Assembly (NCBI RefSeq): GCF_001677475.2
Contig: NZ_CP015229.1
Reading direction: 5' to 3' (one strand)
Origin: Escherichia coli
Lineage (GTDB): Bacteria > Pseudomonadota > Gammaproteobacteria > Enterobacterales > Enterobacteriaceae
Length of the DNA: 64,000 bases
Position numbers and translations under genes: made by a program. The stretch's first letter is position 1. Each line of letters starts with the position of its first letter. The notes under the pieces are model-generated. The model searched no databases, was not told the origin of the DNA, and saw only the letters and a program-made list of their open reading frames with translations. This document shows positions 1 through 7,626 of the stretch, piece after piece.

Positions 1-193
1 AGAGCGCAGTGTCCTTGTAGCTGGCCCATGCAATATCCAGCGCGCGATCTTTTACCACCGTAAATGCCAGTCCCGCACCAGTACGGACATCAAACGCTTC
101 TGTACCCTTTGCTCTGCCACTACGTAACTCATAGTGTTTAATTCCGGCAACCTGCGAGAGATCGCCAATCCACGACCAAATTTCGTTTTTCAT
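1..193 (-). CDS. Aldose 1-epimerase-like (galactose mutarotase superfamily) protein, 5' part only; gene runs off the window start
   Basis: Minus-strand frame starts at ATG 191-193 (ATGA overlap with upstream kinase stop) and stays open to position 1; begins MKNEIWSWIGDLSQVAGIKHYELRSGRAKGTEAFDVRTGAGLAF...; family assignment from memory only. Confidence 0.4.
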   Translation of the reverse strand, partial: MKNEIWSWIGDLSQVAGIKHYELRSGRAKGTEAFDVRTGAGLAFTVVKDRALDIAWASYKDTAL

Positions 194-1152
194 TGTGCTG
201 CTTCCCGAATGGACATGTCATGGCGCTGGATGAACGTTTCGATTTCCGCAAGGCGAGACGTTCCCTCCATTGGGCCACGTCGGGTAACAGCCAGTGCACC
301 GCAGGCGTTGGCATATTGTAATGCCCGATGGGCGTCAAACCCTAGCTGGCGGCAGGCAATCCACGCGCCACCAAAGCAGTCTCCCGCACCGGTCGGGTCA
401 ACTTCTTCCACCGGATAGCTCTCAACATGAAACTGCTCATTCGCGGAGTAGTAACTGGCTCCTTGATTGCCGCGCTTCACAATCACCTCTTTAACACCTT
501 CTTCAAGAAAACCAGCGATTGCACGCTCCGGCGTCGAATGTGGCGACAAGAGCAACACTTCGCCCTCGCTGGGCATATAGATATCCGTTAACTCAAGAAC
601 AAAGTGGAGGGCGTCACGCATTTCTGGAATATCGAGCATCTCTTTTCGAATATTAGGGTCGAAAGAAATAACACCACCATTTGCTTTAACGATGGTTACC
701 GCTTTTTTTACTGCGTCTACCATATGAAACGAAAACAGGGATGAACCCATAATATGAAAATGGGTACAGTCCTTCAGAATATTTTCATCAACATGCTGCG
801 CCGATAATTTACCGCAAGCGGCATTCTTGATATTAAAAATAAAATCGCGATCGCCAGAGTTATGATAAGTAACAAAGGCGCTCCCGGTAGCTTCCAGAGG
901 TAAGACTGAAATCCCCCTGATATCCACACCGTCAGCAGCCAGACGATGTATATTAATATCACCAAAGCCATCATTCCCCACACAGCTAATGATGCCGCAC
1001 GGAACGCCAAGACGTGTCACCTGGTCGATAAAAATAGCGGGCGCACCACTGGGATAAGGGCCGTTCCAGATACCTGGTTGATCAAATGGCTGGCCGATTT
1101 TACTCGCCATAATTTCAACCAAAATTTCTCCAATTGTGAAGACCTTACTCAT
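190..1152 (-). CDS. PfkB/ribokinase-family carbohydrate kinase (kinase A)
   Basis: 320 aa ORF; C-terminal DPTGAGDCFGG motif typical of PfkB kinases; 21 bp downstream of permease gene. Confidence 0.85.
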   Translation of the reverse strand: MSKVFTIGEILVEIMASKIGQPFDQPGIWNGPYPSGAPAIFIDQVTRLGVPCGIISCVGNDGFGDINIHRLAADGVDIRGISVLPLEATGSAFVTYHNSGDRDFIFNIKNAACGKLSAQHVDENILKDCTHFHIMGSSLFSFHMVDAVKKAVTIVKANGGVISFDPNIRKEMLDIPEMRDALHFVLELTDIYMPSEGEVLLLSPHSTPERAIAGFLEEGVKEVIVKRGNQGASYYSANEQFHVESYPVEEVDPTGAGDCFGGAWIACRQLGFDAHRALQYANACGALAVTRRGPMEGTSRLAEIETFIQRHDMSIREAAQ

Positions 1153-1173
1153 ATGATTAATTCCTTGAAATGA

Positions 1174-2163
1174 TTAGCTGCGTTTTCTTTTATTTCTTAC
1201 GTCAAAATAAACGGCTACAAGAATGACTAATCCTTTAACCACCATCTGGTAAAAATAGGGAACATTCATTAAGTTCATGCCATTATTAATAACGCCGATG
1301 GTTAATGCGCCGATCACCGTCCCCACCACGGTTCCATAGCCGCCGTTCAGGCTGGTGCCTCCCAGTACAGCCGCGGCAATAGCATCCAGTTCGTAGCTCA
1401 ACGCGGAATTCGGTTGCCCGGAATAGAGGCGTGAGGCGAGGATCATCCCGCTGATACCTGCCAGCACGGCTGTAATCATAAAGACTTTAATTTTCAAGCG
1501 GGTGACATTTATCCCTGAATAAACTGCCGCTTCTTTATTACCACCAGTGATATAAATTTTTCGTCCAAAGGTTGTTTTAGTAAGAATGAAGTGGTTAATC
1601 AGCAATAAGATGATTAATATCCAGATAGGAATAGGTATATAGAGAAATTCTCCATTCCCCAGTGCCAGAAAGGCATCATCTTTAATCATGATGGGCATAC
1701 CATCGGTCACTATATAAGCGATACCACGGAAGATCCCCATTGTAGCAACGGTGACAATAAACGAAGGGATACCCGCTATAGCCGTCAAGCCACCATTTAT
1801 CATCCCCAGAGCCAGGGCTGCAATAATGGATAATGGGACCAATAAAATAAATGGAATTCCCCATGAAGCCCCAAGCGCAGCAAATGTGCCAATCAATGCA
1901 ATGGTTGAACCGACCGATAAATCAATATCGCCAAGCAAAAGTACATAAGTCATTCCATAGGCGGTAATTGCAATTATCGAAACCTGAAGAATAATATTAG
2001 TAATGTTATTGGCAGTAAAAAAACTGTCATTAATAAAACTGAACAGAATGATTAACACCACCATTCCACTGAGGATACCGCCATATTGCCTGAAGACTTT
2101 TTTAAAATTATTTGCAATGGGAATTTCCGAAGGTTTCGGACTGGCAAGAGTTTTCTCTGTCAT
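1174..2163 (-). CDS. Monosaccharide ABC transporter permease (RbsC-like)
   Basis: 329 aa hydrophobic multi-TM ORF; start abuts ATPase stop. Confidence 0.85.
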   Translation of the reverse strand: MTEKTLASPKPSEIPIANNFKKVFRQYGGILSGMVVLIILFSFINDSFFTANNITNIILQVSIIAITAYGMTYVLLLGDIDLSVGSTIALIGTFAALGASWGIPFILLVPLSIIAALALGMINGGLTAIAGIPSFIVTVATMGIFRGIAYIVTDGMPIMIKDDAFLALGNGEFLYIPIPIWILIILLLINHFILTKTTFGRKIYITGGNKEAAVYSGINVTRLKIKVFMITAVLAGISGMILASRLYSGQPNSALSYELDAIAAAVLGGTSLNGGYGTVVGTVIGALTIGVINNGMNLMNVPYFYQMVVKGLVILVAVYFDVRNKRKRS

Positions 2164-5828: not shown

Positions 5829-6659
5829 ATGAAGAGTGTTAACGTGCCGAGAAAATCGTCTAACCTACTGAAACGCAGATTAAAAATTGCAGAAATTGTT
5901 GCCGCCCAGGGTGAAATCAAAGTTGATGACTTATCTGCGCAACTTGGTGTCTCTGGCGTGACGATCCGCGGCGATCTCAGTTATCTGGAGCAACAGGGAT
6001 ATTTAAAGCGATCATTTGGCGGTGCTATTGCGACACCACTCTCCTCTGAACCAGAAGCGATACAACCGATCGCGCCATTGTCTCTGGCACAACAAATGGA
6101 AATAGCACGACATTGCGCACGGTTAATTCGGGATCGTGACACGCTATTTCTTGGACATGGGACAATCTGCCGTAAGATCATTCCCTTGCTCAGCGAAGTG
6201 AAAAAACTGCGTCTGATCACCAACGATCCCGAACATGCGCTGCTGGCAAATCAGTTTATTGATGGCGAAATAATACTGGCTGGCAGTGAAATGCTGCGCC
6301 CCGACACCGCACTGGCCGGAAAACCGCTTGAACAGGCACTTCAGCATTTCACCATTACACATAGCATTCTGGAAATCAGCCATCTGGATGCTGATGGTAC
6401 TTTAAATATCAACGTTCCCAGACTTGCCGCTGCCTGGCAGCTCTGTTTCGATCATGCCCAAAATAAGACAGTTATCGTTGCCGCCGACCCTGCGCCATCA
6501 ACGGCTGCTATCGGGCATTTGCATCAGGCAGAAAATGTGATCGTCAGCCGCAGCATTAACGAACAATATCAGCAACAATTGCAGTCGGCTGATTTCGTTA
6601 TCCTTTATACCAGTAATGAGTGCTTTACCTGGTCCAATCGCGAAAGGCTTCAGGAATGA
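5829..6659 (+). CDS. DeoR-family transcriptional regulator
   Basis: 276 aa; N-terminal HTH region (LKRRLKIAEIV...LSAQLGVSGVTIRGDL) followed by DeoR-type C-terminal domain; AAAGG RBS upstream. Confidence 0.8.
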   Translation: MKSVNVPRKSSNLLKRRLKIAEIVAAQGEIKVDDLSAQLGVSGVTIRGDLSYLEQQGYLKRSFGGAIATPLSSEPEAIQPIAPLSLAQQMEIARHCARLIRDRDTLFLGHGTICRKIIPLLSEVKKLRLITNDPEHALLANQFIDGEIILAGSEMLRPDTALAGKPLEQALQHFTITHSILEISHLDADGTLNINVPRLAAAWQLCFDHAQNKTVIVAADPAPSTAAIGHLHQAENVIVSRSINEQYQQQLQSADFVILYTSNECFTWSNRERLQE

Positions 6660-6669
6660 GAGGGGTTTT

Positions 6670-7626
6670 GTGACAATAACTATCTGCGCTATGGGCGAAT
6701 TGCTGGCCGAGTTTTTGTCCCGCAACCCACATCAAAAATTCACTCAGCCTGGAGAGTTTATCGGGCCATTTCCCAGCGGTGCGCCAGCAATTTTTGCTGC
6801 TCAGGTGGCAAAACTGTCCCATCGGGCCATCTTCTTTGGATGTGTTGGTAATGATGATTTTGGCCGACTCATTATAGAGCGTCTCCGTCATGAAGGTGTC
6901 ATTACCGATGGGATTCGCGTTATGAACAATGCCGTCACAGGTACGGCGTTCGTGAGTTATCAAAATCCCCAGCAGCGGGATTTCGTCTTTAATATCCCTA
7001 ACAGCGCCTGCGGTTTGTTTACTGCTGAGCACATTGATAAGGATCTGCTAAAACAGTGTAACCATCTCCATATTGTGGGCTCATCGTTGTTCTCATTTCG
7101 CATGATCGATGTCATGCGTAAAGCAATAACGACGATCAAATCGGCTGGCGGCACCGTTTCTTTCGATCCCAATATTCGCAAAGAGATGCTGAGCATTCCT
7201 GAAATGGCGCAGGCCCTCGATTATTTGATTGAATATACGGATATTTTTATCCCCAGCGAAAGCGAACTCCCTTTCTTCGCGCGTCACAAAAATCTGCCAG
7301 AAGAACAGATTGTTAGCGATCTTCTCCACGGCGGCGTAAAACATGTGGCGATAAAACGCGCCCAGCGTGGGGCCAGCTATTACAAGCTTAAAAACGGTAC
7401 ATTACACGCCCAGCATGTTACAGGCCACGATATCGAAATTATCGATCCAACGGGTGCAGGCGACTGCTTTGGCGCAACGTTTATCACTCTTTTCTTATCC
7501 GGTTTCCCGGCACATAAGGCACTGCAATATGCAAATGCCAGCGGCGCGCTCGCCGTAATGCGGCAAGGTCCGATGGAAGGGATATCCTCACTGGCTGACA
7601 TTGAAGACTTTTTGCAGCAGCACTGA
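6670..7626 (+). CDS. PfkB/ribokinase-family carbohydrate kinase (kinase B), paralog of kinase A
   Basis: GTG start after GAGAGGGG RBS (ATG 6691 alternative); DPTGAGDCFGA motif; long blocks shared with kinase A. Confidence 0.8.
   Translation: MTITICAMGELLAEFLSRNPHQKFTQPGEFIGPFPSGAPAIFAAQVAKLSHRAIFFGCVGNDDFGRLIIERLRHEGVITDGIRVMNNAVTGTAFVSYQNPQQRDFVFNIPNSACGLFTAEHIDKDLLKQCNHLHIVGSSLFSFRMIDVMRKAITTIKSAGGTVSFDPNIRKEMLSIPEMAQALDYLIEYTDIFIPSESELPFFARHKNLPEEQIVSDLLHGGVKHVAIKRAQRGASYYKLKNGTLHAQHVTGHDIEIIDPTGAGDCFGATFITLFLSGFPAHKALQYANASGALAVMRQGPMEGISSLADIEDFLQQH

Follow-up and report, generated by a model that had tools for sequence, protein, structure and literature searches.

Identity of the island between accC and yhdT

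What is encoded between accC and yhdT in those Escherichia coli strains that carry extra genes at this place, and which sugar do these genes serve? The question was raised by a stretch of 64,000 nucleotides of E. coli DNA (contig NZ_CP015229.1, assembly GCF_001677475.2; hereafter the window), whose positions 1-7626 contain seven complete genes and the first 64 codons of an eighth, as counted from a table of open reading frames. We conclude, with a probability of about 0.92, that this segment represents the tag locus of E. coli, a set of accessory genes inserted at the accC/yhdT site that serves growth on the rare ketohexose D-tagatose. The locus (tagKR/tagYABCDE) is already known, since it was characterised together with its substrate in 2022 (PMC9720028) and in 2025 (PMC12226905). 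The first-pass annotation of the window, made from the letters alone, therefore gave a real and correct reading of the genes, but the novelty that it implied is lost to these two descriptions of an operon with a known substrate. The only unusual detail of this copy of the island is a six-residue in-frame deletion in tagY. The genes are arranged in the order tagE-D-C-B-A-Y on the minus strand, divergent from tagR-K on the plus strand (EcN: E. coli Nissle 1917; aa: amino acids; ABC: ATP-binding cassette):

1-193, minus strand: tagE, first 64 codons (start codon 193-191), running off the start of the window; DUF4432/aldose-1-epimerase-like; translation MKNEIWSWIGDLSQ...
190-1152, minus strand: tagD, D-tagatose kinase of the PfkB family, 320 aa; 99.7% identical to EcN TagD
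1174-2163, minus strand: tagC, ABC permease, 329 aa; 99.4% identical to EcN TagC; PF02653
2164-3663, minus strand: tagB, two-cassette sugar ABC ATPase, 499 aa; 99.0% identical to EcN TagB; two PF00005 domains
3724-4614, minus strand: tagA, periplasmic sugar-binding protein, 296 aa; RbsB-like, PF13407; 98.6% identical to EcN TagA over 296 aa
4650-5486, minus strand: tagY, class II tagatose-1,6-bisphosphate aldolase, 278 aa (284 aa elsewhere); TIGR01858
5829-6659, plus strand: tagR, repressor of tagYABCDE of the DeoR/GlpR family, 276 aa; 99.3% identical to EcN TagR; PF08220 and PF00455
6670-7626, plus strand: tagK, second PfkB kinase, 318 aa; 98.7% identical to EcN TagK

The block ends at the start codon of yhdT and is followed by yhdT, panF, prmA, dusB and fis. 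Its G+C content is 45.7%, against 49.9% for the remainder of the window. The order and orientation of the eight genes were as first described; the block is not complete in the window, where the eighth gene, which had been called epimerase-like and actually encodes a DUF4432 protein, is represented by 64 codons only. The missing left part is provided by the public contig L007 (run ERR10434813), with one mismatch to the window over 15,486 bp: an intact tagE of 348 aa, then accC and accB.

Strains N3, JJ1886 and Nissle 1917 also carry the eight-gene block, flanked by accC and yhdT. At the DNA level the island is 97.8% identical to that of Nissle 1917, 97.9% to that of JJ1886 and 98.6% to that of N3, and seven of its proteins allowed a comparison with EcN, which gave identities of 96.8-99.7%. 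In K-12 strain MG1655, accC (b3256) and yhdT (b3257) are separated by 108 bp with nothing between them, as the first-pass annotation had stated when it described the block as strain-variable. Strain-variable it is: a megablast search with positions 1-7700 detected it in 1422 of 5426 complete E. coli genomes (26%), with at least 80% coverage in 1419 of these. The matches showed 95-99% identity and were almost always chromosomal, two of the 1423 matching places being on plasmids. In the same search, a 66-kb E. coli record (NZ_JBTZOT010000002.1) matched by a tagY-like aldolase alone (85.5% identity, 12% of the query) and has nothing else of the island.

All membership tests for the tag locus that could be run (insertion point, gene set, identity to EcN, regulatory elements) gave a positive result. 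The six protein families expected earlier, PF00294, PF01116, PF00455, PF13407, PF02653 and PF00005, are all recorded for products of window-identical contigs, in concordance with the NCBIfam assignments. Comparison with other E. coli genomes, which had been proposed as a check, confirmed the accessory status of the block, and full-text literature searches led to its characterised counterpart in Nissle 1917 (PMC9720028).

Published experiments and the proposed pathway

The function of the locus was established in Nissle 1917. Ha et al. (2022) described an 8.5-kb region, absent from K-12 and organised in two operons (PMC9720028). Compared with glucose, D-tagatose raised the expression of all six minus-strand genes more than 40-fold and that of tagYAB more than 1000-fold. 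Deletion of the six genes, or an in-frame deletion of tagD, abolished both growth on D-tagatose and its consumption. A plasmid carrying the six genes restored growth, and also conferred growth on D-tagatose to K-12, B and W strains; growth of K-12 with this plasmid required pfkA, not pfkB. Induction of tagYABCDE in Nissle is specific for tagatose and subject to catabolite repression, and tagK shares with tagR a transcript whose level stays nearly constant.

Taken with annotation and homology, these results suggest the following pathway. TagABC would import free D-tagatose, which TagD would phosphorylate to tagatose 6-phosphate. PfkA, encoded by the core genome, would convert the latter into tagatose 1,6-bisphosphate, and TagY, a zinc-dependent class II aldolase, would cleave the bisphosphate into dihydroxyacetone phosphate and glyceraldehyde 3-phosphate. 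This bisphosphate route via TagY is the likeliest one, since tagY is the first and the most strongly induced gene of the operon.

The scheme is close to the one deduced in the first-pass annotation. Import of a free sugar independently of the phosphotransferase system (PTS), followed by phosphorylation and cleavage by an aldolase of the tagatose-bisphosphate type, as a non-PTS alternative to the gat/kba routes, fits the 97-99% identical Nissle locus (PMC9720028), and D-tagatose, the substrate of that locus, had headed the list of candidate sugars. Two points have to be amended. Tagatose catabolism is indeed the function of the block, but growth needs only the six-gene operon of the minus strand and not all eight genes as one catabolic unit; and phosphorylation by an island product applies to TagD, the second phosphorylation being assigned to the core enzyme PfkA.

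The aldolase TagY and its six-residue deletion

The 278-aa TagY of the window scores 455.1 bits with TIGR01858 (cut-off 443.55) and 500.7 bits with the GatY subfamily model NF009374 (cut-off 383). It is approximately 64-65% identical to GatY and 57% to KbaY. Compared with other copies, the gene lacks 18 bp, in frame, between positions 4996 and 4997, with a flanking 3-bp CAA repeat. The deletion removes the residues VQRTQI (164-169 in EcN numbering), so that the barrel of the window TagY is not full-length and free of core gaps. When the deletion junction was searched as a 100-bp query, all 5426 complete E. coli genomes lacked it, coverage of the query never exceeding 53%. Public assemblies, among them GCA_016118665.1, nevertheless contain the exact 278-aa protein, which is indexed in at least 41 blocks. 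Its occurrence on many independent public contigs indicates that the short tagY is the allele of a lineage and not an assembly artefact.

His83, His180 and His208 of EcN TagY (His83, His174 and His202 in the window) are invariant in comparison with GatY and KbaY, and the remaining invariant residues are all kept in the 278-aa protein. We take the three histidines to correspond to the zinc ligands of AgaY/KbaY (PDB 1GVF). The deletion was placed in the secondary structure with AlphaFold models of both forms of TagY, built from a six-sequence alignment, with mean predicted local distance difference test (pLDDT) values of 80 and 86; this confidence score is no measure of stability. In the model of intact TagY, VQRTQI forms the last four residues of a predicted helix (157-167) and the turn before a strand (171-175), with a pLDDT of approximately 95. 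The strand leads to the invariant His180.

Several observations weigh against the simplest view, in which the window carries a functional tag locus working by the bisphosphate route. The growth experiments were all performed with the Nissle 1917 locus, in Nissle or in other hosts. No single mutant of tagY, tagE, tagK or tagABC is reported in the available text of PMC9720028. The requirement for pfkA alone does not prove the bisphosphate route, since GatZ and KbaZ of E. coli interconvert tagatose 6-phosphate and fructose 6-phosphate (PMC11907403) and a route through fructose 6-phosphate would also need PfkA; this bypass is not mentioned in the parts of PMC9720028 and PMC12226905 that were available. 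As for TagY itself, each of its five best solved homologues, down to approximately 40% identity, contains the segment that has been lost here. The model of the deleted form shows a helix of four residues (157-160), and the local pLDDT block means, 67 and 95 for intact TagY, fall to 49 and 62.

The deletion is the main ground for a first alternative, according to which the tag locus of this lineage is partly decayed: TagY would be inactivated or destabilised, and the bisphosphate would be cleaved by GatY/KbaY, or tagatose 6-phosphate drained by GatZ/KbaZ, or else the strain would be tagatose-negative or tagatose-sensitive. The position of the lost residues, their conservation among solved class II aldolases, the shortened helix of the model with its low local confidence and the absence of the allele from the 5426 complete genomes all speak for decay. 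On the other hand, the deletion is in frame, the three histidines and the other invariant residues are retained, the TIGR01858 score remains above its curated cut-off, the exact allele persists in public assemblies, all the other island genes are intact in this lineage, and the confidence of a model says little about the stability of a protein. We therefore regard partial decay as a tentative explanation that is less probable than a working locus, and give about one chance in three to an impaired TagY. In that event the aldolase step may be weakened in the window lineage, which may rely on GatY/KbaY or on the GatZ/KbaZ bypass. The 278-aa TagY may be a natural loss-of-function or change-of-function variant, tolerated because GatY/KbaY or GatZ/KbaZ make TagY dispensable.

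Transporter, kinases and TagE

TagD scores 414.1 bits with NF049991, the NCBIfam equivalog model for tagatose kinase, and so lies just below its cut-off of 420. We kept the assignment as tagatose kinase, since the genetic data on the 99.7% identical EcN protein outweigh a shortfall of six bits. The transporter proteins behave in a similar way with NCBIfam: the best matches of TagC are AraH and RbsC, and those of TagB are XylG, AraG and RbsA-like models, all under cut-off. The start of tagA was placed at the ATG at 4614; the open frame extends to a TTG at 4620.

TagK, the second kinase, is 52% identical to TagD, retains the catalytic GAGD motif and scores 341.8 bits with NF049991. Its gene probably starts at the GTG at 6670 (318 aa) rather than at the ATG at 6691 of the RefSeq annotation (311 aa). 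A GAGGGG motif is located at 6660-6665, upstream of the GTG, whereas the ATG lacks a Shine-Dalgarno sequence; the longer protein recovers an N-terminal strand that aligns with TagD, and the gene caller used on a window-identical contig likewise selected the 318-aa form. In Nissle, tagK failed to replace tagD, and the available text of PMC9720028 shows no role for TagK.

TagE was analysed with the N3 protein, which is identical to that of L007 at 341 of 348 positions. It matches PF14486 with an E value of 2e-104, and its only solved relative is 3TY1, an uncharacterised structural-genomics entry labelled 'hypothetical aldose 1-epimerase'. A full-text literature search on DUF4432 returned nothing relevant to the function of TagE. 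TagE might open the ring of tagatopyranose and thereby expose C6 to the kinase.

These proteins bear on two further alternatives. In the first, tagatose 6-phosphate would mainly be epimerised to fructose 6-phosphate by GatZ/KbaZ or by TagE, as in Sinorhizobium and Agrobacterium, and TagY would be auxiliary. The C4-epimerase activity of GatZ and KbaZ cited above agrees with this proposal, as do the position of tagE, which is that of the rhizobial tagatose-6-phosphate epimerase gene, the requirement for pfkA, which fits equally well, the lack of a tagY mutant in the available text of PMC9720028 and the persistence of a lineage with a damaged tagY. We nevertheless consider such a route improbable: tagY heads the operon and is among its most strongly induced genes (PMC9720028), the family scores make TagY a bona fide member of the tagatose-bisphosphate aldolase family, TagE belongs to a mutarotase-like fold family unrelated to the known C4 epimerases, and gatZ and kbaZ sit in operons that are induced by other sugars. 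It is equally improbable that D-tagatose is incidental and that the natural substrate is another ketose or a related host-derived or diet-derived sugar, served by TagK and TagE: the rarity of D-tagatose in nature, the presence of two paralogous kinases both below the tagatose-kinase cut-off together with a DUF4432 protein that has no assigned role, and the service of a related rhizobial transporter in galactitol and D-altritol catabolism (PMC9720028) would fit this, but D-tagatose induces the operon more than 1000-fold, growth on this sugar requires the operon and needs no other island gene (PMC9720028), and none of the island genes encodes a polyol dehydrogenase or an isomerase through which a different sugar could enter as tagatose. 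The bisphosphate route from D-tagatose via TagY thus remains our preferred reading.

Regulation by TagR

Park et al. (2025) named tagK, tagR and tagYABCDE, mapped one transcription start per operon and predicted the promoters Ptag and Preg, a CRP site and two operators, tagO1 and tagO2 (PMC12226905). They showed TagR to be the repressor that responds to tagatose: over-expression of EcN TagR repressed Ptag and blocked growth on this sugar. The closest NCBIfam model of TagR is AgaR, under cut-off. The predicted elements were all located in the window:

5487-5828, between the operons: divergent regulatory region, 342 bp, 32.8% G+C (341 bp in Nissle; PMC9720028)
5513-5531, plus strand: candidate operator tagO2, matching the published operator at 18 of 19 positions
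5537-5555, minus strand: candidate operator tagO1, matching at 17 of 19 positions
5557-5562 and 5578-5583, minus strand: predicted -10 and -35 hexamers of Ptag, exact matches
5585-5600: CRP-like site, half-sites matching exactly
5615-5622: further CTTWCAAA site, operator-like by sequence
5781-5788: further CTTWCAAA site, operator-like by sequence, overlapping the -35 hexamer of Preg
5783-5788 and 5805-5810, plus strand: predicted -35 and -10 hexamers of Preg, exact matches

The cores of tagO1 and tagO2 form an inverted repeat. The motif CTTWCAAA has five matches in the whole 64-kb window, four of which are in the 342-bp intergenic region; two of these are the tagO1 and tagO2 cores. EcN, N3 and JJ1886 have conserved all four. 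The two additional sites are not mentioned in the available part of PMC12226905. A generic promoter scan of positions 5400-8000 gave 4 sites, against 4.3 in shuffled sequences, and the published Preg was among them. As one of the extra sites overlaps the -35 hexamer of Preg, the pair could mediate autoregulation by TagR or DNA looping. We offer this, on the motif matches, as a lead and not as a finding; weak autoregulation would fit the approximately two-fold induction of tagRK in Nissle (PMC9720028).

DeoR-family repressors generally bind phosphorylated sugars. By analogy, the effector of TagR may be tagatose 6-phosphate rather than free tagatose, a suggestion of our own drawn from this family pattern. 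Since TagK is produced constitutively together with TagR, and TagR perhaps senses tagatose 6-phosphate, TagK could be the kinase that generates the inducer. It is doubtful that the three loose ends of the locus (the TagY deletion, TagK and the extra operator-like sites) hold something new.

Insertion site and lineage

The right end of the island was compared with the K-12 sequence:

7627-7718, plus strand: spacer at the right end of the island, 92 bp, up to the yhdT start; replaces the K-12 spacer

In the window yhdT starts with the GTG at 7719, 92 bp after tagK; the start codon is ATG in K-12. Similarity to K-12 resumes at position 7720, the second base of this codon. The entire 108-bp K-12 spacer between accC and yhdT is consequently replaced, including any terminator and any yhdT-panF promoter located there. 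A terminator scan detected no terminator-like site between tagK and yhdT, so that transcription of tagRK may run on into yhdT-panF. At the right junction, where signs of a mobile element were looked for, we found no integrase gene, insertion sequence or tRNA gene.

For the backbone next to the island (7700-20000, 12.3 kb), identity to the 5426 complete E. coli genomes does not exceed 98.5%, which indicates that the window lineage is not represented among them. Closer relatives are present in other public data: contigs of ERR10434813 are 100% identical to the window over 6,837 bp, in addition to the 15,486-bp match described above, and a contig of GCA_016118665.1 is 100% identical over 6,837 bp. 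A comparative paper of 2026 lists the region as 'GR 23, accC..yhdT' in extraintestinal pathogenic E. coli (ExPEC) and avian pathogenic E. coli strains.

Collinearity between the window and Nissle 1917 extends over at least 40 kb. Positions 23768-29119 hold an ordinary minus-strand rRNA operon, with two 5S genes split by a tRNA gene, two spacer tRNA genes and a StyR-44 match, and an alpha-operon ribosome-binding-site element is present at 42795-42906. The Rfam scan of the whole window placed no known RNA in the island.

Comparison with known systems

The closest system is the tag locus of Nissle 1917 itself (ECOLIN_RS18670-18705, equivalent to HW372_RS02435-02470), which agrees with the window in all eight genes, in their order and orientation and in the accC/yhdT insertion site, and shares its promoters, operators and CRP site with the window. 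The window copy differs by approximately 2% at the nucleotide level and by its shorter tagY (18 bp; 278 instead of 284 aa).

Clusters of Sinorhizobium meliloti and Agrobacterium tumefaciens C58 for D-tagatose, galactitol and D-altritol, as reviewed in PMC9720028, likewise combine an ABC importer, a PfkB-family tagatose kinase producing tagatose 6-phosphate and a DeoR-type regulator. They continue with a tagatose-6-phosphate epimerase that yields fructose 6-phosphate and have no aldolase, whereas the island encodes a class II aldolase and relies on core PfkA. No epimerase gene of the rhizobial type is found in the island, which has the DUF4432 gene in that position; Ha et al. noted that the sequences are highly divergent (PMC9720028).

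The gat (galactitol) and aga/kba (N-acetylgalactosamine) systems of K-12 end in the same way, with a class II aldolase acting on tagatose 1,6-bisphosphate, and are also controlled by DeoR-family repressors. They differ in their entry: the sugar is taken up and phosphorylated by the PTS, and the aldolase works with GatZ or KbaZ, whose genes adjoin gatY and kbaY in K-12. None of the eight island genes encodes a PTS component, such as an enzyme II, and the island has no gene for a partner of the GatZ/KbaZ type. The PTS-dependent D-tagatose pathway of Klebsiella oxytoca and Salmonella and the lacABCD pathway of Gram-positive bacteria similarly convert phosphorylated tagatose into triose phosphates (in part from PMC9720028). 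These pathways, in contrast to the island, use PTS uptake and a tagatose-1-phosphate or tagatose-6-phosphate kinase encoded in the cluster, with a class I aldolase in the case of LacD.

Significance

The main implications of the locus for E. coli have already been published. Nearly all strains of phylogroup B2 carry the island, a group that comprises most ExPEC and adherent-invasive E. coli as well as Nissle 1917. The island is relevant to gut ecology: its carriers consume a sweetener that K-12-like strains are unable to use, and the locus also supplies a tagatose-inducible expression switch. To this the window adds another carrier lineage, an updated prevalence of 26% and an aldolase allele that naturally lacks six residues. 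The 278-aa tagY allele could serve as a ready-made test of the need for TagY in the D-tagatose pathway of E. coli.

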